Source: Theionarchaea archaeon (GTDB lineage Archaea > Methanobacteriota_B > Thermococci > Methanofastidiosales > SZ-28-30). From it: a stretch of 64,000 bases of DNA. The stretch spans positions 64,001-128,000 of the forward strand of contig JACVGT010000001.1 of NCBI GenBank assembly GCA_018992685.1, given 5' to 3'. The notes beneath the pieces were generated by a model, which had not been told where the DNA came from, did no database searches, and was given only the letters and a program-made list of their open reading frames with translations. This document shows, piece after piece, positions 23,187-38,206 of this stretch (positions are counted from its first letter, which is position 1; every line of letters starts with the position of its first letter). The translations under genes were made by a program, and so were the position numbers.

Positions 23187-23202
23187 GAAGTGCTCACAAC
23201 TG

Positions 23203-25107: not shown

Positions 25108-25425
25108 CTACGATTTCTCCCTCTCCAGTTTGAATATCACAGGTCGTAACCCGTCATGGCAGCACACAATAGAAATACCTTTCTCTTTGAACCAGGGCAT
25201 GTCCCCACCAAAGGACAGTACCCGGACGCTGGGAAACAGGGTAATCCAGGCACTGGTGCAGGGAAACCCTTCAGGCATTGCACCACCTTTACTCACAAAC
25301 TGCTGGCCATCCTTCAATATTCCACATGCCCCCAGAGATTCTGCAGGTGTAACAGGGGGGTTCTCAAAAACCTCTGATGGATGCATTCTTTTTACCACTG
25401 TTATTTTTACTTGTTCTACGGGCAC
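25108..25425 (-). CDS. TIGR04076-like small Cys protein
   Basis: VKITV...C...GQQF...PEGFPC..AW...CCHDGLRPVIFKLER. Confidence 0.8.
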   Translation of the reverse strand: MPVEQVKITVVKRMHPSEVFENPPVTPAESLGACGILKDGQQFVSKGGAMPEGFPCTSAWITLFPSVRVLSFGGDMPWFKEKGISIVCCHDGLRPVIFKLEREKS

Positions 25426-25695
25426 AAAATCACCACCCTACCTTGGAAAAGCCTGCTTAAGAATGTTTGGCTGGCAGTGAGAAAAAAGCCAATACGTTCT
25501 CGGTGTGTTGTGAAGAATTATCATACATTCGGGGGAGACTCGAGCACTGAGAGCAGACGCGGGGACTATCTGCGATGAACAAAGGTGTGGCTGTCACTTA
25601 CCTTGATTGGTGGTTGGTACAGTGTATCTGTATCTGCAAACCTTTATATGGATTCTCTCCTAGACTCATCGATAAGTCGAAATTCAGGTGATACC

Positions 25696-26223
25696 ATGAT
25701 CTGTCCGATTTGCCGGACGTCGAATGACATAGGAGTGAGATTTTGCAGGAAATGTGGGTCCAGTCTCCAGCAGCTGGACAACTACACAGATTATGTGGGG
25801 GCCAGCGCCCGGGCATCCGCTTTCCTGCTTGATACGCTCGTTACTATCGTTCCCACAGCTTTCATTCTGTGGATTGCCGTCGGGTTGTCTGGTATCAGGA
25901 TCCTAATCATTCTTCTTTTGATGAGCTGGGTATATTCTGCAGCACTGGAAAGTTCATCCCGGCAAGGCACCCTCGGAAAGATGGCTGTTGGAATAAGAGT
26001 GGTGGATTTTCATGGAAAGAGAATTTCGTTTGGAACAGCCTCAGTGCGATACTTCGTTAAAGTCGTGACTCTCGGCAGTTTCTGGTATTTAGTTTTGGTT
26101 TCCGAAAAAAGACAGGGAATACACGATATGGCTGCAAACACCTACGTAGTAATGGATGGCCCCTATTCTCGAAGAGAGTCCACGCACAAAACTCCACGGT
26201 GGTTTGGAGTATACAGAGAATAG
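25696..26223 (+). CDS. Zinc-ribbon plus RDD family membrane protein
   Basis: CPIC...FCRKCG, then RASAFLLD...TLGKMAVGIRVV...QGIHDMAANTYVV; GGTGA RBS before ATG 25696. Confidence 0.88.
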   Translation: MICPICRTSNDIGVRFCRKCGSSLQQLDNYTDYVGASARASAFLLDTLVTIVPTAFILWIAVGLSGIRILIILLLMSWVYSAALESSSRQGTLGKMAVGIRVVDFHGKRISFGTASVRYFVKVVTLGSFWYLVLVSEKRQGIHDMAANTYVVMDGPYSRRESTHKTPRWFGVYRE

Positions 26224-26455
26224 CCATGCAAAAGAATCAGCACTACAGCAGAAAAGGAGGTTCAGGTCAGTCCACTAGTATTCTAGATTATTCGAGGAGT
26301 CTCAGAATCCTCGGTCTCATTGATCCTGGTCTGGAAATAAAGTTAATTGCCATCGCAGGTCCAGGACAGGACCTCTATGGTTTTTGAGAACATCTTAGTG
26401 TCAAGTTGAATCTCTACCCAATCACGTCTATCTCTAAGTATGTCGGTTTGTCTTT

Positions 26456-26471
26456 CGAAAAAGTTTATATA
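26456..26471 (+). promoter_or_regulatory. BRE/TATA promoter of precursor A / ABC unit
   Basis: CGAAAAAG-TTTATATA about 45 nt upstream of ATG 26517. Confidence 0.65.
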
Positions 26472-26516
26472 CCCCAACCTACTATGTACTGTAACTACTT
26501 TACAGGAGGTGACAGA

Positions 26517-26627
26517 ATGGAGGGATACTCCGGGAAATTCCTCATGAAGATAGAGGAACTGGAAAGAGCTGGAAGTGAGAAAGCTCTAGCAATCTGCTGT
26601 GGCGGATATGGTACTGTAGACCTGTGA
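26517..26627 (+). CDS. Putative RiPP precursor peptide A (36 aa)
   Basis: GGAGGTGA RBS at 26505-26512; MEGYSGKFLMKIEELERAGSEKALAICCGGYGTVDL with a charged leader (KIEELE) and a CC-containing core; first gene of the RiPP-like locus. Confidence 0.72.
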   Translation: MEGYSGKFLMKIEELERAGSEKALAICCGGYGTVDL

Positions 26628-26652
26628 TCCACAGTATTCGGGTCTGCCATTA

Positions 26653-26668
26653 TTTTTTTCTTTTCTTT
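26653..26668 (+). terminator. Oligo-T terminator/attenuator after precursor A
   Basis: TTTTTTTCTTTTCTTT between the precursor and the ABC ATPase. Confidence 0.5.
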
Positions 26669-26681
26669 GTCTGGTGATACG

Positions 26682-27650
26682 ATGGAATACGTCATTGAAA
26701 CAAAAGATTTAGCCCGCGAATTCGATTCTGCAGAAGGCGTTCTCCTCAAGAAAAAGAGAAAAATCATAGCCGTTGATCACGTTACGTTCGGAGTGAGAAA
26801 GGGAGAATTATTCGGTCTCCTGGGCCCCAATGGAGCTGGAAAAACAACCACCATAAAGATGCTCACCACGCTACTTGTTCCCACTGAGGGAGATGCCTAT
26901 GTCCACGGCTGGCACGTGGTGAAAGAGGCGCAGAAGATTCGCAACCACATCAACGTCATATTTGGAGGGGAAAGAGGCTTGTACCTCCGATTGAGTGGAA
27001 AGGATAACCTGCGCTACTTCTCAGATCTCTATGGTGTTCCTGCCACCACACAGAAGGAACGAATCCCTGAACTTCTCCAGCTGGTGGGACTCGCAGAACA
27101 TGGGGAGAGAAAAGTGGAAACATACTCACGAGGCATGAAGCAGAGGTTGCACATTGCAAGGGGATTGATCAATGACCCTTCTATAATTTTCATGGACGAA
27201 CCCACAATTGGACTGGATCCAGAGGGAGCTCGTTCCCTGAGAGCAATCATACAAGGGCTGACTTCCAAGGATAAGACGATTTTCTTGACCACTCACTACA
27301 TGTTTGAGGCTGATGAACTCTGCACCAGGATTGCTCTTCTCAAGGAAGGGAAGATCTTAAAGATTGATACGCCAAAATCCTTCAAGAATGAGGTATCTCA
27401 CGTCACTATCATTGAAGCAGAGGGCCACCACATTCCCCGAGAGCTCATTGATGCATTAGAGGCACGTCAGACCGTACGAATGGTAACCACTTCTCAGCAG
27501 GACATGAACCAGGTCCTTCAGATCCAGACCGAACCCTCAACGGATGTAGTCATGGACATACTCCAGAGCCTGCACACAGCCCGGCTTTCTAACATCCACA
27601 TACGTGAGCCATCACTGGAGGACGCATACATCAAAATAATGCAGGGATAA
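26682..27650 (+). CDS. ABC-2 exporter ATP-binding subunit
   Basis: GPNGAGKTT, YSRGMKQR, MDEPTIGLD, TTH. Confidence 0.93.
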   Translation: MEYVIETKDLAREFDSAEGVLLKKKRKIIAVDHVTFGVRKGELFGLLGPNGAGKTTTIKMLTTLLVPTEGDAYVHGWHVVKEAQKIRNHINVIFGGERGLYLRLSGKDNLRYFSDLYGVPATTQKERIPELLQLVGLAEHGERKVETYSRGMKQRLHIARGLINDPSIIFMDEPTIGLDPEGARSLRAIIQGLTSKDKTIFLTTHYMFEADELCTRIALLKEGKILKIDTPKSFKNEVSHVTIIEAEGHHIPRELIDALEARQTVRMVTTSQQDMNQVLQIQTEPSTDVVMDILQSLHTARLSNIHIREPSLEDAYIKIMQG

Positions 27651-27652
27651 CC

Positions 27653-28429
27653 ATGGGTATGAGAACGATTTTTTCAGCTTCAAGACAGGCATTCTACGAA
27701 TTTCTGGCACGACCAGTATGGATTTTCGAAATGACTGTTTCTCCCTTTGTTTTTGCCACAGTTGCCTTGATCATGTTCAGGGACTCACCCTCAACCAATT
27801 CCACGTATATTGTAATGGCCGGGGGTATTATGGGAATGTGGGGAAGCACCCTCTTGGGTGCGGGTTATTCAGTGGTCATTGAACGATATTTTGGAACTTT
27901 ACAGTACTTGTTCGCCAGTCCCTCCTCCCTGGAAGAAATTATTGCAGGTAAAGCCCTCACCAGTGCCGTCATGGGGCTGTGGAATCTCGTTTTCGTCTTC
28001 CTGATTGCAATCATTCTCTTTGGAGTTGACATAGAGATTGCTCACCCTCTCACTTTCTTACTGGCATTGGGGTTGTGTCTCTTTTCTTTTTCAGCCCTGG
28101 GGATACTCTTGTCCACTCTGTTCGTATTGAGCCGTTCTGCTGCAGCTTTAGGAAATATTCTGGAGTTTGCTGCTTTTGTAGTATGTGGCATCATGTACCC
28201 TATCTCTTTCTTGCCTGTATGGATCCGTCCTCTCTCATACATTCTAACACCCACCTGGGGAGCTCAGGTATTGCGGTGGGCCGTGATAGAACCTCAGTTA
28301 GGGGAAGGGTTCTGGATTGGTGTCGCCATGATTGGTATACTCTCTTGTTCGTACATAGTGATTGGCCACTACCTATACTCCCGGATTGATTATCAGGTGC
28401 GAGTGACAGCCAGTTTGTGGAGGTTTTGA
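27653..28429 (+). CDS. ABC-2 exporter permease
   Basis: Six TM helices; ERYFGTL, CGIMYPISFLP. Confidence 0.9.
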   Translation: MGMRTIFSASRQAFYEFLARPVWIFEMTVSPFVFATVALIMFRDSPSTNSTYIVMAGGIMGMWGSTLLGAGYSVVIERYFGTLQYLFASPSSLEEIIAGKALTSAVMGLWNLVFVFLIAIILFGVDIEIAHPLTFLLALGLCLFSFSALGILLSTLFVLSRSAAALGNILEFAAFVVCGIMYPISFLPVWIRPLSYILTPTWGAQVLRWAVIEPQLGEGFWIGVAMIGILSCSYIVIGHYLYSRIDYQVRVTASLWRF

Positions 28430-28431
28430 TT

Positions 28432-29220
28432 ATGGATGCACTACGGGCAGCCTATAGCAGTGCAGTGTTCTCATACAAGGGGTTACTTACCTGGATAGAG
28501 CCCCGGAACTACATTGGGATGAAATTCATTGTGCCCCTCCTGCAAATGTCATTCTTTGCCTACGTAGCCAAGAATGCTGGAGGAGCAGAAGCCATGTCGT
28601 TCGCTGTGGTCGGCAATATGGTCCAGCTGTGTGCTGTTACATCGGTTCTGGGCATGTCAATGGCGGTGGGAATGGAACGGTATTTTGGCACCTTACCTCT
28701 TCTCCTCGTGAGTCCCACTAACAGGTTTGCCCTGTTTATGGGGCGTTCTGTCGTGTATGTGCTGGACGGGGTTACCAGCACCCTGGTGGGGCTGGCATAT
28801 GCGGTATTCCTTTTTGGTGTAGATTTTTCCCAAGCTAACCCTGTTCTCCTGGTGGTAATCTTTCTTGTTACATCCTTTGCCCTGTCAGGATTTGGACTGT
28901 TGATTGGAAGTCTGTCTTTGTACACGAGAGAAGTTGTGGCTGTGGCCAATGCATCGTATTTTGCTCTGTTAATCGTGTGTGGCGTGAATTTTCCGGTGAC
29001 AGAATTACCTCATGTCCTGCAAGGGCTTTCAAAAGTCCTCCCCTTGACATATGGCATCCAGGCGACACGAGAGGTGGTCCAGGGAGCTTCCTTCACAGAT
29101 GTACAGGGATTGATTGGAGCTGAAATTCTCTTTATGGGTGCCCTCCTCGTCGTTGGTTACTTCTTTTTCAGGTACTTTGAGCAAAAGGCTAAAAAGAAGG
29201 GCACCTTTGAGCTGATCTAG
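28432..29220 (+). CDS. ABC-2 exporter permease
   Basis: Six TM helices; ERYFGTL, CGVNFPVTELP; paralog of the preceding gene. Confidence 0.9.
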   Translation: MDALRAAYSSAVFSYKGLLTWIEPRNYIGMKFIVPLLQMSFFAYVAKNAGGAEAMSFAVVGNMVQLCAVTSVLGMSMAVGMERYFGTLPLLLVSPTNRFALFMGRSVVYVLDGVTSTLVGLAYAVFLFGVDFSQANPVLLVVIFLVTSFALSGFGLLIGSLSLYTREVVAVANASYFALLIVCGVNFPVTELPHVLQGLSKVLPLTYGIQATREVVQGASFTDVQGLIGAEILFMGALLVVGYFFFRYFEQKAKKKGTFELI

Positions 29221-29228
29221 GTGAGTGT

Positions 29229-29804
29229 ATGAAAGTCATGGGTATTGATTGTTCCCAGAAACGGAGAGATTCTACCGGTAGGCATCTCTTGCAGGTCGCA
29301 CTAGAGAAGATAGAATCTTATGCAATTACCACTGATGCCATCAGACTAATTGATTACACGCTGGAGTTGTGCACAGGCTGCAATCAGTGTGTGACAGGAG
29401 GTATGTGCCCCATTGACGATGATTTCGATAGCATCTGTGAAAGGGCTATCCCTGCTGATGCACTCCTTTTTGTGTCTCCAGTGTACTGGGGGAGATATCC
29501 CAGTATTCTGTCGTGCTTTATTGACAGGATGAGGAAGATCACAACAATGCCTCATCCTCTCTACAGGAAGAAGGCAGGCCTCATCGTTCAGACAGGGATC
29601 ACTGATACAGCACTGACTGTGGGCAGTTTTGGCCAGCTGTTCAGGTCGTTCAACATGATCAATGTCGTCGCCGTGGGACTTGGTATGATGGATTATGAGG
29701 GACGCCCATTAGAAGACAAGAATGCAATAGCTCTTGTCCAACTGGTGGGAGAGCGGTTAGTCATGGGACTGCAATCAGAAAAGATCAAAGAGATTTTCGG
29801 ATGA
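29229..29804 (+). CDS. Iron-sulfur flavoprotein / NADPH-dependent FMN reductase family
   Basis: CTGCNQC...CPIDDD cluster motif; ADALLFVSPVYWG...FIDR. Confidence 0.85.
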   Translation: MKVMGIDCSQKRRDSTGRHLLQVALEKIESYAITTDAIRLIDYTLELCTGCNQCVTGGMCPIDDDFDSICERAIPADALLFVSPVYWGRYPSILSCFIDRMRKITTMPHPLYRKKAGLIVQTGITDTALTVGSFGQLFRSFNMINVVAVGLGMMDYEGRPLEDKNAIALVQLVGERLVMGLQSEKIKEIFG

Positions 29805-31020
29805 AGACATAGGGAGTCACCAGTTCTCTGTAGGAGGGGAAAGGGTTTTCTTCTCGTATCCCTGTGCCCTCGATGGATTTCATCAGATCAAAAACATTCC
29901 CCTTCAGAACAAAAGGTGGTACTCTTCCCACAAAGTCTCCTTCTCTAACATAGTAGGCCCGCTTGATGTTAAAAACGTATTCTCCTGAGACAAGGTTTGC
30001 ACCCTTGTCATTGACAACTTCCTCAACAACCACACCAGTAAACTGGCTAAGAGAGTTGCTTCCTTCTTTGACCAGTACATTCCTGGGTCCAATCTTGGGC
30101 GGGGCCATGATTGAGGTGCGTACAGCATTCCCTGTGCTTTCTGTTCCATCAAGAAGCGCATGAAAATGATCATATAAGATGTGGGTCAAGATCCCGTTTT
30201 TTATTATTGGATATCTTCGTGACGGTATTCCCTCACCATCACAGAACGATGTCCTCACTCCTTCAGGGTACAGACCATCATCAAAAAGCGTGAACTCTTC
30301 TCCTGCCACATCTGTGCTACTGGCAATACGGGAAATCCCCCGTTTTACTCTGTCAACACTCACCTGCCAGATCAAGGGACGTAACACTGCATAGAGAGCC
30401 CGTGAACCCAGGGCAATGTGGGAAAATCTATATTCTGCATCCTGCGTGTAGCGGTCAATATACTCCTTGATACATCTCACAAGAGACTCACTGTCTCTAT
30501 CCCACAGCCGGGATGAGTTCACTATGTTGAACGTAGATGTTCCTGCTGATACGTCTATATCCAGCACGAAGAAGGTACTCTTTTCTTCAACATCAAGGCC
30601 TGCAGTCGTTTGCAGTGAGAAAGATGATTCTCTGCAGTATATCAACCCCTTTGAAGAAAGTCCGTGGTCCAAGAGCCCCTCGACGATTTCCATGCAATAG
30701 CCTGTGAGGTCCGTGATGTCAGCCCGCTCTATTTTCGGATCACAAATTCCTTCCACTGAGGGATATTTCTGCACTCCAGGAAACGCTATTTCCCACTGGT
30801 ACTCCGTGTCCAGAGCACGGGCAGACTGGAGAGCCTTCTCAACCTGTTCTGTTGTGTTACACGGCATGTTACAGTAATTGAACCCTACTTTGTTTCCCTT
30901 AATAACCCGGACTGCCTGCCCCGATACCTGCACTTTTTGGGGTGTCATTGTTCTTCCCTGGAACTCTACGATGGTATCGGTATACTTTCCCTGGAAAACC
31001 TCACTCTCACACGTACTCAC
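29785..31020 (-). CDS. pmbA: PmbA/TldE family protein
   Basis: FCDGEGIPS..YPIIKNGIL, STGNA.R, ANLVSGEY; no HExxxH; follows tldD. Confidence 0.82.
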   Translation of the reverse strand: MSTCESEVFQGKYTDTIVEFQGRTMTPQKVQVSGQAVRVIKGNKVGFNYCNMPCNTTEQVEKALQSARALDTEYQWEIAFPGVQKYPSVEGICDPKIERADITDLTGYCMEIVEGLLDHGLSSKGLIYCRESSFSLQTTAGLDVEEKSTFFVLDIDVSAGTSTFNIVNSSRLWDRDSESLVRCIKEYIDRYTQDAEYRFSHIALGSRALYAVLRPLIWQVSVDRVKRGISRIASSTDVAGEEFTLFDDGLYPEGVRTSFCDGEGIPSRRYPIIKNGILTHILYDHFHALLDGTESTGNAVRTSIMAPPKIGPRNVLVKEGSNSLSQFTGVVVEEVVNDKGANLVSGEYVFNIKRAYYVREGDFVGRVPPFVLKGNVFDLMKSIEGTGIREENPFPSYRELVTPYVFIRKSL

Positions 31021-32303
31021 GAAAGCACCTCCACCTCTGAGAATTTCAAGAACGGTGTCAAGCTAGATGATGGAATGAACTGTCGACCCTTTGAGCAGTG
31101 TCTCGTCACGAGTTCCCGTTCTTTTCCCACCCCCTCAAGGTGGGAAAGGATTTCATTCACATTTATTCTCATATTTACGTTACGCACAGAGTATCCCTCT
31201 ACGAGATGGTTCCCAGACTCTGCAACAAGAGACAGAACATCTTGTTCATACTGGAGTTCCGCTGCACCCAGGCTGTCAACAACAATATCAGCTCCTTCAC
31301 ATAGTTCTTCTGTGGATTGATTTCCAGGAAGAACCTGAATATTACTGGTTCGTACCAGGGGTGGACACAGGACACTCTCTGAAAGGGCATTGGCAGTGGG
31401 GTTACACGAGAGAGCACCTGCAGTTTCCCTTGAATGCAGCAAAGAGGTTAAGACGCCTTTTTTAATGACGGGAGTTCCTTCTGCCTTGACACCTTCATCA
31501 TCATAGGAATACTGGCCAAATGCGTTCTCCAGTAACGGGTCATCGATGCATGTGCAATCGTTTGAAGTGATCTCCTCTCCCAGATGGTCAGCCAGCACAC
31601 TCTCCCCTCTCAGCACTTTGTCGGCCTCGAGCCCATGCCCTACGACTTCGTGGATGAGAATTCCAGTAATTTCAGGGGCGAAAACGATGGTGTACTTTCC
31701 TGGGGAAGGCGAACCCACTTTCTTGGGGAATGTGTTCATTTTTTCCTGCAGCTTTCTTATGACCCGCTCCTCTGACAAGAATTCAAGACCATATGGCGCG
31801 ATCAAGAACCCTTCTCGGACGTAGTCTCCCATCAGGGCAAAAATGATTCCTGTGGCTGCTTCCTCTGTTTGAATATGTGATCCCTCCGAATTCTCAAAAA
31901 GGTCCATACTGTAATAGTCATTAAATCCCAGGTAGTAATGGTTAATCAGCGGATTCTCATCAATTCCAGATGATTCTACTAGTGTTCTTATTTCCCTGAT
32001 CTTTTCTTCGATTTCTGTGGTATGAGGAGGATATACTGCCTGCGACGGTTTATCGACGTGGTGGCAAGGACTTTCAGCCAGGACGGCACCCTGAAAGGGG
32101 AGTGATGCCGAGATTTCTTGTGCTCTCTCTATCAAGGTATGGGGGTCAGTTTCCCCCGAACGGGCATAAAACCCCCACCTCCCTGCAGCCAGCACTCGGG
32201 CAGATGCCCCTCGATTGCAGGTAGTGACGCACCGGACAATATGGCCATCCCGTACATCAATGGATGTTCTCCACAGGGTATTTGCTCTCAATTCAACGTG
32301 CAT
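31017..32303 (-). CDS. tldD: TldD family metalloprotease
   Basis: HEVVGHGLEAD zinc motif, YDDEGV, LLHSRETA, C-terminal CSKGRQ. Confidence 0.87.
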   Translation of the reverse strand: MHVELRANTLWRTSIDVRDGHIVRCVTTCNRGASARVLAAGRWGFYARSGETDPHTLIERAQEISASLPFQGAVLAESPCHHVDKPSQAVYPPHTTEIEEKIREIRTLVESSGIDENPLINHYYLGFNDYYSMDLFENSEGSHIQTEEAATGIIFALMGDYVREGFLIAPYGLEFLSEERVIRKLQEKMNTFPKKVGSPSPGKYTIVFAPEITGILIHEVVGHGLEADKVLRGESVLADHLGEEITSNDCTCIDDPLLENAFGQYSYDDEGVKAEGTPVIKKGVLTSLLHSRETAGALSCNPTANALSESVLCPPLVRTSNIQVLPGNQSTEELCEGADIVVDSLGAAELQYEQDVLSLVAESGNHLVEGYSVRNVNMRINVNEILSHLEGVGKERELVTRHCSKGRQFIPSSSLTPFLKFSEVEVLS

Positions 32304-32311
32304 AAATCCAC

Positions 32312-33400
32312 CTATGGGTACCTGCAGTCCTTCTCTGGGTCTATCAAAGCATATTCAGGAAATTTCCCGATATGATAGAAGGCCTGGCACATGGGGTAAG
32401 GAGCCAGAAGATCACCAAACTCAGCAAATGCCATGGCTCTGCAGAACCCGCCACAAATCCTGGCAGCATGACAGTTACCACACACACCTTTCAGGCTGGT
32501 TTTATTGGACTGATCCAGTATTTTGAACATGGGGTGTCTCTTTATTTCCTCAAACGTATTGATGCGCAGGTTTCCAGCTTTCATGTCAGGATGAAGTGAT
32601 AACGCTGTACATAGGCTGACATCTCCCTGGGGGGATACTCCCATGAGTTTCCACCACGGGCAGGTCACATACTCTTGGACATCGTCAATATTCTCTGCAG
32701 GCATCAACGCCAAGGGTAAATCTGTGATGATCCTCAGATCGTCGAGGTACTTTGCTTTTAGGTGAAAATAGGCTTGGAGCGTCTTTTCCACCAAGGTGAC
32801 ATCGGTGGGCTTTTCACCAGATCTACCAAGGGGAACAGTCTGCGCAAGAATTCGAAAAATGCTACATTCAGTTTCAATGCCAAGAGTGATAATCTCCTCT
32901 AACTGAGGAAGGTTTTCATGAGTGACATACGTGGAAATGCCGTGGTCAATATCATATTCTTGCAATAGATTCAGCCCGTTAACAGCTCTTTCAAAGGCAC
33001 CAGGACGCCCACGCTGGGCATCGTGGACGTGACCAATACCATCAATGCTCACCCCCACAGATGCATTCTTGTACTGGCTGAGCAACTGGGCAATTCCTGG
33101 TGTAATTAACGTCCCATTTGTTTCTAAGTTGAGGAGGACACCGCGTTCCAAGACGATGGTGAGTATTTCTTTGATATCTTTCCGTGCAAGAGGTTCTCCG
33201 CCTGTTATTGACACTTCAGCTAATTTGCCGTCTGATGCAACTGTGTCGATGATTGAAGCGACTTCTGCAGGCGTAATTTCATTTTCGAATGCTTTTCCAG
33301 GTCCTGCTTCCAGATAGCAGTGTTTACACGCCAGGTTACACTCTCTCGTCACAACAACATACAATCGGGAAAAGACTTTACCATTTCCAGGGGATTCCAT
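32312..33400 (-). CDS. Radical SAM/SPASM domain protein (no RRE)
   Basis: CNLACKHC, TGGEPL, ETNGT; SPASM cysteines C...GDVSLC...CGNC...CGGFCRA...C. Confidence 0.92.
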   Translation of the reverse strand: MESPGNGKVFSRLYVVVTRECNLACKHCYLEAGPGKAFENEITPAEVASIIDTVASDGKLAEVSITGGEPLARKDIKEILTIVLERGVLLNLETNGTLITPGIAQLLSQYKNASVGVSIDGIGHVHDAQRGRPGAFERAVNGLNLLQEYDIDHGISTYVTHENLPQLEEIITLGIETECSIFRILAQTVPLGRSGEKPTDVTLVEKTLQAYFHLKAKYLDDLRIITDLPLALMPAENIDDVQEYVTCPWWKLMGVSPQGDVSLCTALSLHPDMKAGNLRINTFEEIKRHPMFKILDQSNKTSLKGVCGNCHAARICGGFCRAMAFAEFGDLLAPYPMCQAFYHIGKFPEYALIDPEKDCRYP

Positions 33401-33547
33401 GAGAGAGACTCAATCCCGTAAGGTTAAAAGGTTATCTATAGTAAGGGTTGGAATAGAGAAGGAACGCAATGATATTTTAGGATGCTACTCCTTCACGGGG
33501 GTGTTACTCCTTCTCTGTTCCCTTCTTGTCATGATATTCAGCCTCCC

Positions 33548-34717
33548 TCAGCCCTGCCTGCGCTGTCTCAGAACTGATCGGACCAGCAATACTGCATTGA
33601 TACACAAGATTCCCAAGAATACAATGCTGTCATATGATGTTCTGACCTCTCCAGAGACTCTGGAAAGAGTTCCCACAATTCGTGGAACAACATAAGAGAG
33701 AAGAAACAATGCAGCGGCGATATTCCCGAGCACGAACACCACAGAGTACCCTCTAACGATACGCATCTCACGTTCCGGCACAGCAGAAAGGTCGTGGTAT
33801 GAAAAACGATCCCAGACTCTGTGTAATTTGTTGCCCAGAAAAGCCACCGTATCTCCAAAGAGATTCTTACAGTTGAAGTAGTTGGTGATAATGTAGTAGA
33901 CGTCAGTCTGCATAAAAAAGAGACACTGCCACAACGTGGAAATTAACTGCAAAAGGATGAAGGCCTTCAAAAATCTCAGGGCAACGTTATCCGACTCCCG
34001 GAAGATCCACATGATGATGAGAACCAGAGAAACAGTCACCAGGTCCGAAAGTATTCCCGCGAAGTACACCCTGTACCTCTTCTCTGCCGGCACTGTCCAT
34101 ACAGAGGTTATATCAGTTTCTGCCACGACAAAGTATAATCGATGGCTGATACGGAACTGGGCGTCCAGTCCTAAAGACTTTGCTGCTGCCAGATGGTAAA
34201 ACTCGTGCTTGAACACAAAGAGCCAGCTCACTGCAAAAGTAGTCAGCAATGCAACCGTATACGAGTCCACAAACATGAAGTCACCGAATTTGGGAAAGAA
34301 CTGGGGGGTTGTCAGAAGGATCATTCCCCCTAGAACCATTACTAGCGTATAAAAAACGTATGCTGGCTTTGAGAAAAGTATTTGGGCTTGTTCCGGTTTT
34401 AAATTTTCAAAGTATGCATGAATTTCCTCATGTTCAGTTTCGATCAGTTCATCATCAATTTTCTGGACGAATCCTACTTCTATCAGGCTTTCTATGAACT
34501 CTTCAAGTTCTACTTCTTCCCTGAATTTCTCTTCCAGGTTCTTTCTGGCTTCTCCTATAGTCAATCCCTTCTTGAGCAGGTTAATAGCTTCTACACCCAC
34601 CTCGGGTAGACTGATGAAAGAACCAATTTCCCTTCTGCCTACAATCCATTCTCCTTCCTGCAGACTCATGTCCAGAGGGTAGAATGTGATCACAGAATCC
34701 TTTTGCATGCCAGTCAC
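33548..34717 (-). CDS. RRE(PqqD-like)-fused M50 intramembrane metalloprotease
   Basis: N-terminal ~90-aa RRE-like wHTH (AINLLKKGLTIGEA...LEEFIESLIEVGFV); HEFYH, VYFAGILSD, FFMQTDVYY; multiple TMs. Confidence 0.8.
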   Translation of the reverse strand: MTGMQKDSVITFYPLDMSLQEGEWIVGRREIGSFISLPEVGVEAINLLKKGLTIGEARKNLEEKFREEVELEEFIESLIEVGFVQKIDDELIETEHEEIHAYFENLKPEQAQILFSKPAYVFYTLVMVLGGMILLTTPQFFPKFGDFMFVDSYTVALLTTFAVSWLFVFKHEFYHLAAAKSLGLDAQFRISHRLYFVVAETDITSVWTVPAEKRYRVYFAGILSDLVTVSLVLIIMWIFRESDNVALRFLKAFILLQLISTLWQCLFFMQTDVYYIITNYFNCKNLFGDTVAFLGNKLHRVWDRFSYHDLSAVPEREMRIVRGYSVVFVLGNIAAALFLLSYVVPRIVGTLSRVSGEVRTSYDSIVFLGILCINAVLLVRSVLRQRRQG

Positions 34718-36024
34718 TCAATCAACTCCAGGACTTCTCTTTTCGTTTCCTCATCTCCCCTTTTCAGCAGTTCTTTGATGATCAAGGCGGTAGCTGGGCA
34801 CCGGTAGGGATCTTTCTTGTAAAGAGTCTGATGATATGCAAGAGCATGACCCCTGCACCCCCCGCCGCAGAAGAATCTATGCTTACAGGTCTTGCAGGGT
34901 TCGACTTTATGCACATTCAAGCTGTACAACTCCTGAAGCACTTCTGAATGCTTCCAGATTTCCCGCAGTGTGGACTTTGTGATATTTCCCAGCCTTAATG
35001 ATTCATATTTGGTGAGCATACAGGGGTATACATCTCCTGCTGGCGTTATCACAGGGGACGTTCCAATGGAACACCGTTCTCTGGGGACTACCAGCATGCT
35101 GATTTCTCCCTCGTCTGTTTCATGGGTATAGCAGAAATGCTCACACATTTGCTGAGGAGTCAGTAACAATGCGCTGTTGAATCCCCTCCCTGTGGGAGAA
35201 ACGTTCGCACTGCTGAGAGGGACTCCCAGTTCTTGTCCTAACCTATAAAGAGCATCCAGTTCATGAAAATTCTCCCTGGTGAGCACAGAACTGATAGAGA
35301 CATCAATATCGACTTCCTTCAAAGCCCTCATACCCTGTATTGCTTTCTTGAATCCTCCCTTCATCCCTCTGATAGCATCATGAGTCTCTGGATTGGCTCC
35401 ATCAAGACTTACCTGAACACTGTGGATTCCCGCTTCTTTGAGCTGGTGAGCGACCGTTCGATTGATCAATGTGCCATTGGTTAGGAGGTTAGGCTTCAAC
35501 CCTGCAGCATTCACCTTTCTTATCATGTGTAAGGTCAGATCTTTCTTGAGCAGAGGTTCGCCCCCCGTGATGGTAACAGGAGTAACCTGCAATGAGATGG
35601 CCTCATCCAGCACCCTGTCAATCTCCTCTTTATTGAGTTCATTGTGGTCGGGAGCTCCTGCACTGGAAGCACAGAATTTGCAGTGCTCATTGCACCGGTA
35701 CGTGACTTCAATATTGAGAGATGAAGGGCAGCTATAGTCATAAACAGGTTTTATGAAAGAGGGGGTCTGGCAGAGGGCCAGGATATTTTCATGTTCCAAA
35801 TACTCCATGAAAGGAGTGACAGCTTTTTCAACATCTCCTGGCGATTCACCATACTGCTCCGACAGAATACGTATCAAATCCTCATACGTGTGGGTGCCAT
35901 CACACAGCTGCAGGACTGCCTGGGCAGTTTCATCAACTCTGAAGATAGCCGAATCCAGCAGCAAGTAGTTACCTTTGCTGGTATTCCTGATAAATACCTG
36001 ATCTCTCACTCGTATGTACGCCAT
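34714..36024 (-). CDS. RRE(PqqD)-fused radical SAM/SPASM peptide maturase
   Basis: N-terminal PqqD-like DETAQAVLQLCDGTHTYEDLIRILSEQY; CNEHCKFC; SPASM CSIG...GDVYPC...CKTC...CGGGC...C. Confidence 0.92.
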   Translation of the reverse strand: MAYIRVRDQVFIRNTSKGNYLLLDSAIFRVDETAQAVLQLCDGTHTYEDLIRILSEQYGESPGDVEKAVTPFMEYLEHENILALCQTPSFIKPVYDYSCPSSLNIEVTYRCNEHCKFCASSAGAPDHNELNKEEIDRVLDEAISLQVTPVTITGGEPLLKKDLTLHMIRKVNAAGLKPNLLTNGTLINRTVAHQLKEAGIHSVQVSLDGANPETHDAIRGMKGGFKKAIQGMRALKEVDIDVSISSVLTRENFHELDALYRLGQELGVPLSSANVSPTGRGFNSALLLTPQQMCEHFCYTHETDEGEISMLVVPRERCSIGTSPVITPAGDVYPCMLTKYESLRLGNITKSTLREIWKHSEVLQELYSLNVHKVEPCKTCKHRFFCGGGCRGHALAYHQTLYKKDPYRCPATALIIKELLKRGDEETKREVLELIE

Positions 36025-36327
36025 TCTATCACCTCTTGGGAGAAGGGAAGTACCTCCATGCAGTCGAGTCTTGTCTGCTCCAGATTTAACATGGGGCTAC
36101 GCGGGCTGTCTGCCTTTTTCCTGATTTTCTGATAGATATGAATTTCGTCTTACACCCTCTCTCTTCTGATTGATGAAATATACTCAATGGTTAGTTATTT
36201 GAATCTATGCTCTGAAAGATGTAACAATACCATCTCCTGCGCGTGCCGCCCAACCTTACCAGTTAAAAATCACCTGCAGTGAACCCCCAAAGCATCTTCT
36301 CTCATCATTATGTAATGGTTTTGACTC

Positions 36328-36351
36328 AAAAAAAAGAAAGATCAAAAAAAA
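36328..36351 (-). terminator. Oligo-T terminator after precursor B
   Basis: Two long A tracts on + strand directly downstream of the stop at 36360. Confidence 0.6.
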
Positions 36352-36359
36352 CGAGAGTT

Positions 36360-36449
36360 TTAGAGACAGACCATCTTGGATTCCTTCCATACGTTGTCAG
36401 TGAAGGCTGTGGTCTTTTTCTTTTCAAGCTTTCTGACGGCAATTGACAT
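36360..36449 (-). CDS. Putative RiPP precursor peptide B (29 aa)
   Basis: Below the ORF-track cutoff. GGAGGTG RBS 6 nt upstream; MSIAVRKLEKKKTTAFTDNVWKESKMVCL; own promoter and terminator; directly upstream of the RRE-rSAM. Confidence 0.75.
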   Translation of the reverse strand: MSIAVRKLEKKKTTAFTDNVWKESKMVCL

Positions 36450-36494
36450 GGTTTACACCTCCTTTGGTTGGATGTGGGCTCTTCTCGTTATGAG

Positions 36495-36509
36495 TATTTA
36501 AGTCTTTCC
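36495..36509 (-). promoter_or_regulatory. BRE/TATA promoter of precursor B
   Basis: Minus strand GGAAAGA-CTTAAATA about 45 nt upstream of ATG 36449. Confidence 0.55.
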
Positions 36510-37046
36510 ATATGAAATTATGGAACACATATATTATAAGTAATAAATTAGCATCTCTTTGTAATATTGATCTCTGATTTTTTTTAATATAGTCAAGCTG
36601 ATGCCCGAGACAGTCATTGATGGTACGATTCTTTTTTTTGAAGAAAAGGGGCCATTAGTCATGTTCGCACGTGATACGATTGAAAGAGTACTAGGAGATC
36701 ACAAAGAGAAATTGAGACAGTTCTTGTGTATCGTGGATTCTCCTGCGAATATGAGATCACTGATGCTATGTAGACCTGATAAATTGGCTTATTCAATTCG
36801 GATAACGCCAATTATCCGCACTCAGTTCTTTTCCTTCACATCTGGACCCTTCTCTGGCATCCTGATGGAGTTCCTTCAAATCTGAAACACGGTTTCCCAG
36901 TATCACCATCTCAGTTCAACCTAGAAAGCATATTTCTTGAGGCTCCAGATTGAGAAACGACATCCTGGTATTCTACGGGAAAGTGGTGTGGAGAATGCTA
37001 TGCCATGCCAGATGCCACGGAAAACTACTTCTCAATCTTTTGTTTC

Positions 37047-37460
37047 TCATGCAACTGTGAAGATGAGAACGACATCACCATGAGCATCTGTCAATTCCAA
37101 TGTAGCACTGACAATGACATATCCTTCTACTGATTCCAAAACTTGCAGAAAGTCAAGTTCCTGTTCCATTACTCCTTCAGGTTCACTACAGTACATTTCA
37201 GTGACCCCAACAGGGCCGAATTCGATGTGCCCTTTATTAGCAGTGTATTCCGAAAAATAGGAATTGCACCCTGCATCTCCTGTAATTCTGCCGTCCTGAA
37301 ATTGAGCAGTGATTCTGGTGTCCCGCAGAACAGTGACCAGTCCCGTCTCAGTTCTGTAAGAGTCCAAGATCCATATGTTACCTTCCAGGGATATAGGTTT
37401 CTGACCGATACATCCTATTGCCAAACCCAGAAAAATAATCACCAATGAGGACTTCTTCAT
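37047..37460 (-). CDS. META/HslJ-domain lipoprotein
   Basis: Lipobox-like LAIGC; GDAGCNSY...TEMYC...MEQE. Confidence 0.88.
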   Translation of the reverse strand: MKKSSLVIIFLGLAIGCIGQKPISLEGNIWILDSYRTETGLVTVLRDTRITAQFQDGRITGDAGCNSYFSEYTANKGHIEFGPVGVTEMYCSEPEGVMEQELDFLQVLESVEGYVIVSATLELTDAHGDVVLIFTVA

Positions 37461-37730
37461 TATGATATCACCTCAGTATAGTATTCATATCCTTCTTGAA
37501 ATAACTTTTGGTCCTTTTCAAGAATTCACGGGTTCCCCAGATTACCCATCCTTTTGATTTGAGCATCACGATATCGCTGTGGCTGATGCTCTAGACCGGC
37601 TACAGGAAACACTTCAGTCAGTGTCCACATCGCAATCATTGAATGACTGTTGAAATGGATTCAGCAGTATTCATGTTCCAGAAGGAATTCAAAACATATT
37701 ATTCATAAAAAAGAAAAAAGAAGTTGATAC

Positions 37731-37835
37731 TTACTTCTTTATTGCCAGTTTTGCACCACAAACGGAGCATGTTCCCTTTTCTGTAATCGTCGGGGCGTTG
37801 TCTAGGGTAGCTCCACAGAGTCCACATTTAGCCAT
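37731..37835 (-). CDS. 34-aa zinc-ribbon microprotein
   Basis: AAGGTGA RBS; MAKCGLCGATLDNAPTITEKGTCSVCGAKLAIKK (two CxxCG); T-tract downstream. Confidence 0.7.
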   Translation of the reverse strand: MAKCGLCGATLDNAPTITEKGTCSVCGAKLAIKK

Positions 37836-38206
37836 ACTATCACCTTGAATACATATGAAAACTCCTTAGATAAATAATTTTCGGTTCAGAATACAAGAAA
37901 AGATTCGTGGCTCACAGTTTTCAGAGATCATGTGCTTCCACTCTTCTCAAGATGGTGCAGATACGGTGCCGTGCAGTAGCGAGTGATCTGGAAATGTTTT
38001 TCAGTCCCTAATGGCTTTTTCTCTTGTGGCTCTAAAGAAAGTGTATAGAACCCTGTCACGTTTCCAAGTACCAGCAGAGGAGAAAGTCTTAAATAGCAAC
38101 ACGTTTACATAAAGCAACGCTGAGATGACATATGAACTTGTAGAAATATATATGTAGATAAGTTGTGCGTTATTGCAGGAAATAGGTTGAAGGAGGAGTG
38201 ACACGG

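Follow-up and report, generated by a model that had tools for sequence, protein, structure and literature searches.

Two adjacent gene sets, most likely each for a small enzyme-modified peptide, in an uncultured marine-sediment archaeon

Several described peptide systems resemble parts of the locus reported here. In the daptide leader peptidase MpaP/DapP, an RRE and an intramembrane site-2 (M50) protease are fused (10.1101/2023.03.08.531785). In the Bacillus epipeptide system (yydFGHIJ/epeXEPAB), a short peptide is encoded together with a radical SAM epimerase, the M50 membrane protease EpeP and an ABC transporter; a review has an M50 entry for epipeptides and describes an N-terminal 'pencil sharpener' trimming by TldD/E which halts at modified residues (PMC10885120). 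The TldD/TldE (PmbA) proteases (M103) of microcin B17-type leader removal form heterodimer-type pairs with HExxxH in TldD only, and are encoded outside the cluster in the characterized LAP cases. The thioether- or C-C-crosslinking maturases of sactipeptides and ranthipeptides (CteB, PapB), of the streptide type (StrB/WgkB) and QhpD combine an N-terminal PqqD-type RRE, a CX3CX2C radical SAM core and a full SPASM domain, and adjoin a short precursor.

The window analyzed here, a stretch of 64,000 nucleotides in total, most likely contains two adjacent, previously unstudied gene sets of an uncultured marine-sediment archaeon, each for a small enzyme-modified peptide. The locus comprises 11 genes, all of them real according to ORF analysis and Pfam/NCBIfam searches, in two converging units whose 3'-ends overlap at 29785-29804. 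These positions agree with a previous sequence-only reading of the window, whose domain calls and assignment to peptide-maturation (RiPP-type) machinery were also upheld. As seen from the genes present, their domains, their conservation and their co-location, module A (36449-33548, minus strand) consists of a 29-aa peptide (pep29), an RRE-containing radical SAM/SPASM enzyme (rSAM1) and an RRE-M50 protease. In module B/C (26464-33400) a 36-aa peptide (pep36), an ABC-2 exporter and a flavoprotein converge on PmbA, TldD and an RRE-less radical SAM/SPASM enzyme (rSAM2). With moderate confidence we regard these as two juxtaposed RiPP-type systems rather than one, and we read both as known enzyme classes combined with new precursor families. 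No match to either module was found in the published literature, in agreement with the earlier statement that this enzyme combination is uncharacterized in archaea.

The module A precursor pep29 (36360-36449, minus strand) reads MSIAVRKLEKKKTT / AFTDNVWKESKMVCL, with the putative cleavage position between the two parts. A Shine-Dalgarno sequence (AAGGAGGTG, 36464-36456) and a TATA-like box (CTTAAATAC, about 36502-36494) can be read upstream, together spanning 36456-36502; an identical CAGGAGGTG Shine-Dalgarno sequence, along with a TTTATAAAT/TTATAAGTAT box, stands before both paralogous peptides of the genome. Two oligo-T tracts (36328-36352, minus strand) right behind the stop codon likely represent an archaeal terminator or attenuator. 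The spacer to rSAM1 measures 335 nt, compared to 43 nt in an orthologous locus (L061). Module A peptides share the leader x[RK]K[LV]E…TT and a WKExKxxC end, which is invariant across 8 aligned peptides, and their linker varies in length and sequence. A family profile searched against 1.84 billion proteins (E<=1e-3) yielded 27 cluster representatives of 29-56 aa, all with both the leader and the WKExKxxC end, two of them showing conservative exchanges (Glu/Asp or Lys/Arg) in the latter. Translated in six frames, the genome contains the pattern WKE.K..C.* 3 times, in each case upstream of an rSAM1/M50 cassette, and a leader profile made without pep29 picked pep29 out of 118,411 small-ORF starts (E 2.6e-4). 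The precursor family matched no Pfam or NCBIfam family, and differs from known crosslinked-RiPP precursors in its leader ([RK]K[LV]E..TT) and its end.

rSAM1 (34714-36024, minus strand) matches Pfam PqqD (1.6e-09; 38.4 bits, cut-off 23.4), Radical_SAM (3.5e-30) and SPASM (2.8e-11). It shares the RRE, the CX3CX2C core and the full SPASM domain with the crosslinking maturases named above, and like these adjoins a short precursor, here one whose conserved C-terminal motif contains Cys, Trp and Lys. Unlike these, it reached no curated cut-off: WgkB scored 170 bits (cut-off 650), MftC 167 (265), AhbD 162 (500), PqqE 145 (381) and StsB 132 (625), and PapB, AlbA and SkfB were not among the 25 best NCBIfam families listed. 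As these scores are far below the cut-offs and the best are nearly tied, the chemistry of rSAM1 cannot be read from homology. The genome encodes 5 rSAM1-type paralogues forming a clade (34-42% identity; next-best match 30%). The triad of peptide, RRE-rSAM and RRE-M50 protease is present in all three cassettes of the genome (C7, C3 and C19). In relatives and metagenomes the peptide was found upstream in 8 out of 10 rSAM1+M50 loci (L061-L068); in the other two (L010 and L011) the upstream side is cut by the contig end.

The third gene of the triad (33548-34717, minus strand) overlaps the rSAM1 stop by 4 nt at its start and encodes a 389-aa protein without a Pfam match of its own (E<=0.01). Among 20 aligned relatives, 16 matched Peptidase_M50 and 8 PqqD; some M50 relatives carry the JGI name 'putative peptide zinc metalloprotease protein'. 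H171, E172, H175 and D272 do not vary, and 27 out of 27 aligned relatives have both D272 and the HEFYH motif. In the AF2 model (pLDDT 81), residues 8-86 match the RREs of lasso B1, TbiB1 and PqqD (Z 10.4, 9.8 and 8.8), the best match, to an RRE from solved RRE-leader complexes, extending over 79 residues with an rmsd of 2.0. The membrane part resembles RseP, SpoIVFB and the M. jannaschii S2P (Z 8.8, 8.5 and 6.7). Relatives, motif and model thus identify the protein as a fusion of an RRE with an M50 (site-2-type) intramembrane metalloprotease, and the N-terminal RREs which the sequence-only reading had assigned to this protein and to rSAM1 proved real (AF2 model against solved RREs; Pfam PqqD). 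It shares with MpaP/DapP the fusion architecture and the presumed role of an RRE-dependent intramembrane leader peptidase, which we predict for module A. Daptide clusters encode MpaB/C/D/M-type enzymes, whereas the partner here is an rSAM/SPASM enzyme and the peptide has the leader [RK]K[LV]E..TT and ends in Cys plus one residue; aminotransferase, alcohol dehydrogenase and methyltransferase domains were not found in this cluster by Pfam. In a predicted complex, residues 1-100 of the protease and pep29 scored 0.32, compared to 0.02 for the best of 3 controls; contacts agreed by at least 92% between runs, with a partner pLDDT of at least 52. In the calibration, 116 out of 157 solved complexes and 2 out of 215 mismatches reached that mark, those at scores <=0.60 being 18 of the 157 and both passing mismatches. 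Since the calibration contained chains of 30 residues or more and RRE-leader complexes have been solved, the pass may reflect structures already known to the predictor, and the prediction weakly supports a pairing of this RRE with pep29.

Judged from these sequences, the RRE of rSAM1 would bind the pep29 leader MxIxV[RK]KLE...TT, and the enzyme would install one or more radical-mediated crosslinks in the C-terminal WKExKxxC[LM]. As the crosslink we would guess first at a thioether joining the invariant Cys with one of the WKExK residues, and second at a Lys-Trp C-C bond. The RRE-fused M50 protease may bind the same leader and cut at the membrane, probably behind the TT pair, which would leave a product of about 15 residues. 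Altogether, module A is very probably a peptide-maturation pathway.

The sequence-only reading had taken the plus and minus units together as one complete pathway. Such an integrated pathway, in which both rSAM enzymes, the M50 protease, TldD/PmbA, the flavoprotein and the ABC transporter act on one or both peptides, could yield a product that is doubly modified or has two components; the protease might, for example, remove the leader, TldD/PmbA trim the remainder and the transporter export it. The tight packing of the genes, the converging units with overlapping ends and the lack of an exporter in module A itself are in line with this, and the cassettes with 2-3 rSAM genes per peptide (C3, L064, L065 and L068) make additional rSAMs acting on the pep29 family plausible. 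Moreover, a 4,183-nt contig of another study, with 1 difference, runs from the 3' part of the flavoprotein gene (29486) through PmbA, TldD and rSAM2 to the 3'-end of the M50 gene, and the JGI contigs with an M50 orthologue and with a flavoprotein orthologue have the same length of 28,012 nt. Thus, more than one strain has modules A and B/C side by side, and the two could act together. We nevertheless consider a single pathway unlikely. The conserved unit is only peptide, RRE-rSAM and RRE-M50 protease: in L061, with an M50 protease of 76% identity, rSAM2, TldD and PmbA, like the other B/C genes, are absent within 10 kb of the M50 gene, and neither C3 nor C19 has these three genes nearby. In one accession series the M50 orthologue (MBU7047976) and the rSAM2 orthologue (MBU7046800) are 1176 numbers apart, and rSAM2 falls outside the clade of 5 rSAM1-type paralogues. 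Instead of belonging to a minus-strand unit, rSAM2, TldD and PmbA travel with the plus-strand flavoprotein: in 5 Theionarchaea/Methanofastidiosia MAG records, orthologues of flavoprotein (65-77% identity) and rSAM2 lie exactly 3 accession numbers apart, a spacing from which, rather than from the DNA, we derive the order flavoprotein, PmbA, TldD, rSAM2 seen in the window. A two-component product of shared enzymes is also unlikely, as pep36 lacks the leader of the RREs' cognate peptides and did not match the module A leader profile.

Besides the two juxtaposed systems which we favor, it was considered that only module A is a peptide pathway, with rSAM2, TldD/PmbA, the flavoprotein and the ABC-2 transporter serving protein or cofactor maturation, or detoxification and efflux, and pep36 being a small structural or regulatory protein. 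The enzymes of module B/C partly fit this improbable view. rSAM2 (32312-33400, minus strand; Pfam Radical_SAM 1.8e-24, SPASM 7.6e-07) has CX3CX2C at residues 21-28 and CX2CX5CX3C in its SPASM part, lacks an RRE, and its top curated matches AhbD and NirJ are enzymes of haem pathways. These scores, however, amount to about one third of the cut-offs (AhbD 161/500, NirJ 143/515; ScmF 142/400). Membership of either rSAM in AhbC/D or NirJ had been named as a finding that would speak against a peptide pathway; the best score was 162 against 500 bits, and the RiPP-type reading is not refuted on this ground. A YydG/EpeE-type model was not among the 25 best NCBIfam matches for either rSAM, and the epipeptide system also differs from this locus in that the ABC transporter here sits in the other module. 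rSAM2 orthologues comprise 9 clusters at 76-84% identity, followed by a drop to 40%.

TldD (31017-32303, minus strand; Pfam PmbA_TldD_3rd 1.6e-44 and PmbA_TldD_1st) carries HEVVGH, and in its PmbA/TldE-like partner (29785-31020, minus strand; PmbA_TldD_3rd 3.3e-38), which has a 4-nt overlap between its start and the TldD stop, no HExxxH was seen. This TldD scores 152 bits with the archaeal TldD model of NCBIfam (cut-off 635) and is therefore a divergent paralogue. The pair is one of 7 in the genome and flavoprotein paralogues are also common (4 on contig C5), mostly away from rSAM genes, hence the presence of both is less specific. In contrast to the characterized LAP cases the pair lies inside the cluster, beside a peptide-modifying enzyme, and TldD/E-like genes are on record in pearlin RiPP clusters as well (PMC10885120). 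In support of module B/C as a peptide system, another region of the same genome (C17:5740-21313) again contains TldD-PmbA, an RRE-rSAM, a Shine-Dalgarno-led 30-aa ORF and an ABC-2 transporter. The flavoprotein (29229-29804, plus strand) had been read as an Fe-S flavoprotein. Its flavodoxin-type fold (Pfam FMN_red 3.5e-19) and compact Cys motif (CTGCNQCVTGGMC, CX2CX2CX5C) were confirmed; as Fer4_21 reached 19 bits against a cut-off of 35, Fe-S binding is at most suggested by the motif. The transporter is encoded on the plus strand by a DrrA-like ATPase (26667-27650; Pfam ABC_tran 9.5e-28; NCBIfam drrA 297 bits, cut-off 312), for which an alternative ATG start at 26682 has GGTGA upstream, and by two ABC-2 permeases (27653-28429 and 28417-29220; Pfam ABC2_membrane 1.7e-17 and 3.6e-18).

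pep36 (26517-26627, plus strand; MEGYSGK...AICCGGYGTVDL) is located 5.7 kb from rSAM2, on the other strand. Its signals, read from the sequence, are TTTATATA (26464-26471), which follows an A-rich BRE-like stretch, and a Shine-Dalgarno sequence, AGGAGGTG (26504-26511). Both short ORFs of the locus are closely preceded by GGAGGTG and, at a distance of about 50 nt, by a TATA-like box, a signal pair limited to 19 small ORFs of the 3.03-Mb genome. Eight of these 19 sit less than 1.5 kb from an rSAM/SPASM gene, a zone covering 4.1% of the genome. As proposed earlier, both short ORFs are real conserved genes, and for module A homologous peptides were found beside orthologous rSAMs. A protein collection contained the exact pep36 sequence and two single-residue variants, and there is no paralogue in this genome. 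The contigs encoding pep36 (13,787 and 22,074 nt) equal in length contigs with rSAM2 orthologues (77-78% identity), the shorter also one with a flavoprotein orthologue (about 66%); if contigs of equal length are the same contigs, an assignment based on lengths and not on DNA, pep36 is 35-36/36 identical where the enzymes are 66-78% identical. Contigs of a diverged relative cover pep36 with 6 listed changes; 2 of these are synonymous, A17G and L23F are also among them, and the last 12 codons have none listed, while the neighboring ABC gene aligns only in patches. Conservation over the whole length would be compatible with either a precursor or a small folded protein. Against a role of module A alone stand the gene order kept in the 5 MAG records (accession spacing), the signal pair that marks rSAM-linked small ORFs and a CCGG C-terminal end beside a SPASM enzyme, TldD/E and an exporter, which is standard RiPP logic. 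For pep36 as the substrate of module B/C the case is about evenly balanced. In that role, rSAM2 would modify pep36 at its CCGGYG end, possibly with the flavoprotein as electron donor, and the product would be exported by the ABC-2 transporter, its N-terminus having been trimmed by TldD/PmbA.

Precursors of cofactor-type RiPPs (PQQ, mycofactocin), unlike those of typical antibiotics, combine an invariant motif at the C-terminus with a linker that varies. Production of a peptide-derived cofactor or small molecule by module A in the way of PqqA/PqqE or MftA/MftC, with Trp, Lys, Glu and Cys as building blocks, would fit this pattern in WKExKxxC and the presence of MftC and PqqE among the best matches of rSAM1, but is very unlikely given scores under both cut-offs, the presence in one genome of three paralogous cassettes whose peptides differ, an RRE intramembrane protease known as leader peptidase of secreted RiPPs, the daptides (10.1101/2023.03.08.531785), and the finding of no conserved dehydrogenase or other cofactor-using partner beside the triad in the loci examined.

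By sequence comparison, the short peptide family of module A was found beside related proteases in many bacteria. Clusters of a peptide, a ThiF-family gene and an RRE-M50 protease occur in Nonomuraea, Microtetraspora, Fictibacillus, Cohnella, Tumebacillus and others and are unnamed as far as we found. They share with module A the RRE-M50 family (25-34% identity), the leader M.I.[IVA][KR]KVE..[TA]T and a Cys at or near the C-terminal end, and differ in having a ThiF/E1-like adenylating enzyme instead of rSAM/SPASM as maturase and cores of 5-13 residues without the WKExK motif. In 37 out of 56 other RRE-M50 loci, all bacterial, a ThiF-family gene is located directly upstream in place of the rSAM gene, and 22 of the 56 contain an ATG-started peptide with this leader. 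Thus, the leader stays with the protease while the maturase varies.

All eleven ORFs proposed by the sequence-only reading were recovered from the sequence at their positions. Its domain calls were borne out by Pfam and NCBIfam, except for a 389-aa protein, for which our Pfam scan returned nothing at E≤0.01 and PqqD only at E 0.067. The plus strand carries pep36, a 36-residue peptide (36 codons, 26517-26627), with the signals TTTATATA (26464-26471) and AGGAGGTG (26504-26511) upstream and a T-rich tract 3' of the ORF. It is followed by an ABC ATPase (26667-27650), two ABC-2 permeases (27653-28429 and 28417-29220), all assigned by Pfam, and a flavoprotein with FMN_red fold and a compact four-Cys motif (29229-29804; Pfam and sequence). 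The minus strand carries pep29 (29 codons, 36449-36360), preceded by AAGGAGGTG and a TATA-like box and trailed by two oligo-T tracts, rSAM1 with PqqD, radical SAM and SPASM domains (36024-34714; Pfam), the 389-aa membrane protein (34717-33548; motifs, relatives and model), and rSAM2, a radical SAM/SPASM protein without N-terminal extension (33400-32312; Pfam). These are followed by a TldD-like protein of 428 aa (32303-31017) and a PmbA-like protein of 411 aa (31020-29785), both assigned by Pfam and sequence. As claimed, the two units converge, and their ends overlap at 29785-29804.

The first three genes of the minus strand form a unit that recurs elsewhere. In the genome studied here (3.03 Mb, 45 contigs, 91% complete) three homologues of the 389-aa protein, termed RRE-M50 in the following, were found, each adjoining rSAM1-type genes. 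These cassettes are located in the window (contig C7), at C3:57211-62705, where three rSAM genes precede the M50 gene, and at C19:14974-17736. Short ORFs of one family, MSIAVRKLEKKKTTAFTDNVWKESKMVCL, MKFNVRKLETVSTTVAAADDVVPWKEAKLQCL and MKFNVKKVESISTTAVAPAAKNPWKETKMQCL, lie upstream of them, and the pattern WKE.K..C.* had exactly three matches in the six-frame translation of the genome, all at these cassettes. An rSAM1-type gene followed by an M50 gene was found at 10 loci of relatives and metagenomes, with the peptide directly upstream in 8 (L061-L068); in the other 2 the contig stops inside the rSAM genes or immediately ahead of them. Hence, the expectation that conserved short ORFs accompany orthologous rSAM genes held for the pep29 family, with a precursor gene beside the rSAM1-type enzyme in 3/3 cassettes of this genome and 8/10 loci elsewhere. 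rSAM1 and its four paralogues are 34-42% identical, and the next rSAM/SPASM gene of the genome reaches 30%.

A leader profile built from 18 peptides, leaving out pep29 of the window, was searched against 118,411 small-ORF starts. It retrieved pep29 with 23.8 bits (E 2.6e-4) at rank 4, behind entries used in the model. A family profile of 8 archaeal peptides, run against 1.84 billion cluster representatives at E≤1e-3, yielded 27 representatives, all of 29-56 aa and all with the leader, joined by a linker variable in length and sequence to an end of the (P)WKE[SAT]K.[QN]C. type. All 8 aligned peptides share W-K-E-x-K without exception, and conservative changes occur in two of the 27 representatives (Asp for Glu in P0160, Arg for the first Lys in P0176). 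One Cys, a candidate sulfur donor in the core, is invariant in 8/8 aligned peptides and 27/27 representatives.

In several cassettes one peptide is accompanied by an extra rSAM1-type gene, or by two (L064:11891-13225, L065:3794-5128, L068:3759-5093 and, in the genome studied here, C3:57211-61461). Judged from gene content, the peptides of these cassettes may be modified more than once. The spacer between pep29 and rSAM1 (36025-36359) comprises 335 nt of non-coding DNA, and that of L061, the orthologous locus of 76% identity, 43 nt. Contigs of a relative carry an 88/89-nt replaced stretch at 36080-36169 inside this spacer. Further small ORFs of the pep29 family were found neither in the 335-nt spacer nor in the 147-nt spacer before rSAM2.

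The 389-aa protein is soundly identified as an RRE fused to an M50 protease by an invariant motif, the Pfam matches of its relatives, and model comparison. A large protein collection contained 29 relatives besides its own entry. Some are named 'putative peptide zinc metalloprotease protein' (JGI), a Theionarchaea MAG contributes one, and another, from Cohnella, is labelled 'PqqD family protein'. H171, E172, H175 and D272, i.e. HExxH and a downstream Asp, are invariant in 27/27 aligned M50 sequences. Scanned singly, 16 of 20 relatives matched Peptidase_M50 (PF02163; best E 1e-05) and 8 of 20 PqqD. In an AF2 model calculated from the alignment (mean pLDDT 81), residues 8-86 superimposed with VIA-align on the RRE 6jx3_B (Z 10.4, rmsd 2.0, 79 residues aligned), on 5v1u_A (Z 9.8), and on PqqD 5sxy (Z 8.8). 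An RRE is built of a winged helix and a three-strand sheet, and the first two structures are lasso-peptide B1 RRE domains solved with leader peptides. Thus the RRE domains assigned in the sequence-only reading, for which absence of the fold had been named as refutation, are found in rSAM1 by Pfam PqqD and in the M50 protein by its model. The membrane part matched RseP (Z 8.8, 164 aligned), SpoIVFB (8.5) and the M. jannaschii site-2 protease (6.7), values in a range common for helical proteins, so that the motif and the Pfam matches of the relatives carry the weight for this half. Foldseek with the whole model gave no match at E≤0.001 and only local rows, with probabilities of 0.99 for TbiB1, 0.97 for McbB and 0.77 for SpoIVFB. 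A sequence profile of the M50 family had no match at E≤1 among PDB sequences.

A complex prediction of M50 residues 1-100 with pep29 scored 0.32, the best of 3 controls scoring 0.02, with contact agreement of at least 92% and a partner pLDDT of at least 52 in the runs. The score mark was reached by 116/157 solved complexes and 2/215 mismatches, and at scores of 0.60 or below by 18/157 solved complexes and both passing mismatches, in a calibration that contained no chain shorter than 30 residues, pep29 having 29. Since RRE-leader complexes have already been solved, the pass may reflect likeness only, and it lends weak support to leader binding.

Both rSAM proteins carry a radical SAM core and a SPASM domain. 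Radical_SAM was matched at 3.5e-30 by rSAM1 and at 1.8e-24 by rSAM2 (CX3CX2C motifs CNEHCKFC and CNLACKHC), and SPASM at 2.8e-11 and 7.6e-07 (CX2CX5CX3C motifs CKTCKHRFFCGGGC and CGNCHAARICGGFC). rSAM1 has an N-terminal PqqD-like RRE (38.4 bits, cut-off 23.4), which rSAM2 lacks because its radical SAM motif begins at residue 21. The type of crosslink that rSAM1 would form is not readable from homology, as its best curated models score almost equally and fall well short of their cut-offs. Likeness to the sactipeptide and ranthipeptide maturases lies in the peptides, with the invariant core Cys of the pep29 family and two adjacent Cys in pep36, whereas the enzymes stay below the curated cut-offs (StsB 132/625 for rSAM1; StsB 112/625, PapB 81/340, SkfB 90/300 and AlbA 72/850 for rSAM2). 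The StrB/WgkB type gave the top match of rSAM1, 169.5 bits against a cut-off of 650 and nearly tied with MftC and AhbD, and the conserved Trp and Lys lie a few residues apart in the W-K-E-x-K core. For the mycofactocin and PQQ maturases, rSAM1 scores below the cut-offs as well (MftC 167/265, PqqE 145/381). Enzymes of the AhbC/D and NirJ type, with which clustering would have spoken against a peptide pathway, are matched far below cut-off by rSAM2 (AhbD 160.8/500, NirJ 142.8/515, AhbC 122.8/650) and by rSAM1 (AhbD 162.1/500).

QhpD joins Cys to Asp or Glu, and WgkB-type enzymes form a Lys-Trp C-C link. By analogy to the sactipeptide and ranthipeptide enzymes and QhpD, a Cys thioether would be our first-ranked crosslink, followed by a Lys-Trp C-C link of the WgkB type. 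In the proposed pathway the RRE of rSAM1 would bind the pep29 leader, radical crosslinking would take place inside the invariant WKExKxxC, and RRE-M50 would bind the leader and cleave it at the membrane.

The RRE-M50 family is also present in Nonomuraea, Microtetraspora, Streptomyces, Cohnella, Paenibacillus, Fictibacillus, Tumebacillus, Thermoanaerobaculia and DPANN archaea. An rSAM1-type gene is absent from all 45 of these loci. A ThiF-family gene (Pfam ThiF about 1e-49 in the two loci tested) is located just upstream of M50 in 37 of 56 non-rSAM loci, and an ATG-started peptide, e.g. MTIEIKKVEEVETTGNSNSC or MKIVAKKVEKVKATMDAELCPGLGSC, was found in 22 of the 56. The bacterial leader, M.I.[IVA][KR]KVE..[TA]T, aligns in register with its archaeal counterpart, and the bacterial cores comprise 5-13 residues, mostly with a C-terminal Cys (e.g. 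TTGNSNSC). Leader and M50 thus stay paired across ThiF and rSAM loci while the maturase changes, which is the strongest indirect indication that the M50 RRE reads the leader and that cleavage occurs after the TT/AT pair. Such a maturase swap with leader recognition kept, ThiF being the bacterial variant, represents a natural experiment on the evolution of RiPP pathways. Sets of peptide, ThiF-family and RRE-M50 genes are located at L019:8497-11158, L060:8643-11224 and L034:8787-11065, with 34 more among L016-L060 and L069-L080; a name or a paper for them was not found in our literature search.

Daptide clusters resemble this system in their peptidase. According to a daptide preprint, their leader peptidases are RRE-fused site-2 proteases, accompanied by an ELExMEAP leader, a C-terminal Thr and the enzymes MpaB/C/D/M (10.1101/2023.03.08.531785). 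The 389-aa protein shares the RRE and M50 features of MpaP/DapP. In contrast, peptides of the pep29 family differ in their leader and close with Cys plus one residue, and Pfam detected no domains of the MpaB/C/D/M type in this cluster.

The remaining genes of the window, pep36 with exporter and flavoprotein on the plus strand and PmbA, TldD and rSAM2 on the minus strand, probably form a set of their own. The orthologous locus L061 contains the peptide, rSAM1 and M50, and no rSAM2, TldD or PmbA within 10 kb downstream. These three are not found near the C3 and C19 cassettes either. Orthologues of rSAM2 form 9 clusters at 76-84% identity, after which identity falls to 40%, and flavoprotein orthologues are 65-77% identical. 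The accessions of flavoprotein and rSAM2 orthologues are exactly 3 apart in five MAG records, all from Theionarchaea or 'Candidatus Methanofastidiosia' (MGD2248147/MGD2248150, MBU7046797/MBU7046800, MBU7018211/MBU7018208, MBU7026761/MBU7026758 and KYK31035/KYK31038). This is the spacing predicted by the window order flavoprotein, PmbA, TldD, rSAM2, and from the accession numbers we infer that the two genes between are PmbA and TldD. The M50 orthologue MBU7047976 is 1176 accession numbers away from the rSAM2 orthologue MBU7046800. Two observations count against a clean separation. An M50 orthologue and a flavoprotein orthologue have a contig size of 28,012 (JGI) in common, and a 4,183-nt contig from another study runs, with 1 difference, from the 3' part of the flavoprotein gene (29486) to the 3' end of M50. 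Thus, the juxtaposition of the two gene sets recurs in close relatives.

The TldD/TldE pair is encoded by adjacent genes with PmbA_TldD domains (Pfam 1.6e-44 and 3.3e-38), of which only TldD contains the HExxxH motif (HEVVGH), none being seen in the PmbA-like protein. The window TldD differs from the housekeeping archaeal TldD equivalog, scoring 152 bits against a cut-off of 635. No TldD orthologue was found in 34 genomes of the order, the best match outside its own gene being 31% identical, and no rSAM2 orthologue in the 133 genomes searched, with a best match of 35% identity.

For pep36 the exact sequence and two single-residue variants (…VDF and …TIDL) were found in the protein collection. 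The genome contains no paralogue, and in six-frame translations of 133 genomes from the phylum no match rose above chance level, the best (E 0.039) falling within Thermococcus ORFs of roughly 180 aa. Copies of pep36 lie on contigs of 13,787 and 22,074 nt, equal in size to contigs with rSAM2 orthologues of 77% and 78% identity; a contig with a flavoprotein orthologue (about 66% identity) also has the size of 13,787 nt. These equal sizes suggest that pep36, 5.7 kb from rSAM2 in the window, is co-located with rSAM2 orthologues, so that for this peptide the expected proximity to an orthologous rSAM gene is plausible. If the equal-sized contigs are the same contigs, pep36 is far more conserved than its neighbors. 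Contigs of a diverged relative from three further studies cover 26515-26623 with at least six changes. Those listed give two synonymous changes and, in addition, the substitutions A17G and L23F; for the last 12 codons the listing shows no change. The same contigs align only in patches to the adjacent ABC gene. A leader shared with the pep29 family (KIEELE resembling KKVEEVE) was considered and rejected because the leader profile gave no match. The 90%-identity cluster containing pep36 (P0246) also lists P0248, a Lys/Arg-rich protein of 316 aa without visible likeness, which is probably a clustering artefact.

SPASM peptide maturases without RRE exist. rSAM2 would modify the CCGGYG end of pep36, with the flavoprotein as a possible electron source. 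The N-terminus of pep36 would be shortened by TldD/PmbA until the modification blocks further progress, analogous to the 'pencil sharpener' model of TldD/E-type trimming described in a review (PMC10885120), and the ABC-2 system would export the product. This system would represent TldD/E encoded within a radical SAM peptide cluster.

We consider the window to hold two compact systems from Theionarchaea, an uncultured sediment lineage. A joint reading in three parts is possible, and doubtful as a whole. The [RK]K[LV]E..TT leader and RRE-M50 would form an old cross-domain 'leader plus peptidase' chassis that became coupled to maturases unrelated to each other: in Actinomycetota and Bacillota to adenylating enzymes of the ThiF type, in Theionarchaea to rSAM/SPASM enzymes. 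The archaeal branch would be a new RiPP class with an undescribed crosslink topology in WKExKxxC. Beside it, a second new class would be present, its near-invariant 36-residue peptide matured by an RRE-less SPASM enzyme together with a TldD/E pair and a flavoprotein reductant that are both dedicated to it. With its defined precursor family, minimal three-gene set and clear residues W, K, E, K and C, the pep29 system could reveal a new crosslink.

Each enzyme class found here is already known in RiPP biosynthesis. According to a 2025 archaeal survey, few archaeal RiPP products have been identified and many rSAM-type clusters are without products; ranthipeptide and sactipeptide clusters are among the abundant classes, and class II lanthipeptides are taken up next (PMC12144867). 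In 2026 an archaeal SPASM enzyme was characterised whose substrate is a Cys-rich protein (PMC13692751). Our literature search, with subscription journals and bioRxiv supplements (possible sources of genome-mining tables) outside its scope, yielded no trace of the WKExKxxC precursor family, of a leader shared with bacterial ThiF/RRE-M50 clusters, or of the set of pep36, rSAM2, TldDE, flavoprotein and ABC exporter, and no papers on Theionarchaea RiPPs or ThiF plus M50 clusters. This agrees with the earlier statement that the enzyme combination is uncharacterised in archaea.

Homologues derive from sources named Theionarchaea or Methanofastidiosia, and DNA of the locus was found in marine-sediment, sediment and mangrove metagenomes of six studies, two of them possible sources of it. 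In a sister species both flanks (window 22442-26229 and 37690-41791) are syntenic on the loci L103 (G001:C106) and L104 (G001:C60). The cluster itself (26230-37690) was not found at that place, where the short contigs run into unrelated DNA, and it may be an accessory insertion.

The two peptide genes share their expression signals with few others. A genome-wide screen of ATG-started ORFs of 20-60 codons, requiring GGAGGTG no more than 18 nt and a TATA-like box 30-75 nt upstream, retained 19 ORFs, including pep29 and pep36. Eight of these have an rSAM/SPASM gene less than 1.5 kb away, although such surroundings make up 4.1% of the genome. The genome contains about 39 rSAM/SPASM ORFs, 7 TldD/PmbA pairs, and at least 8 small ORFs that are led by a TATA box and a strong Shine-Dalgarno sequence and lie no more than 1.5 kb from an rSAM/SPASM gene, e.g. 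C3:84211-84351, C7:40714-40809, C9:71514-71603 and C14:99814-99894. As predicted from sequence, these candidate modified peptides are an unusually rich set for a 3-Mb archaeon. The region C17:5740-21313 of the same genome comprises TldD-PmbA, a Shine-Dalgarno-led 30-aa ORF (C17:9218-9310), an RRE-rSAM, a free 90-aa PqqD protein with an rSAM, and an ABC-2 transporter, and probably encodes another peptide pathway.
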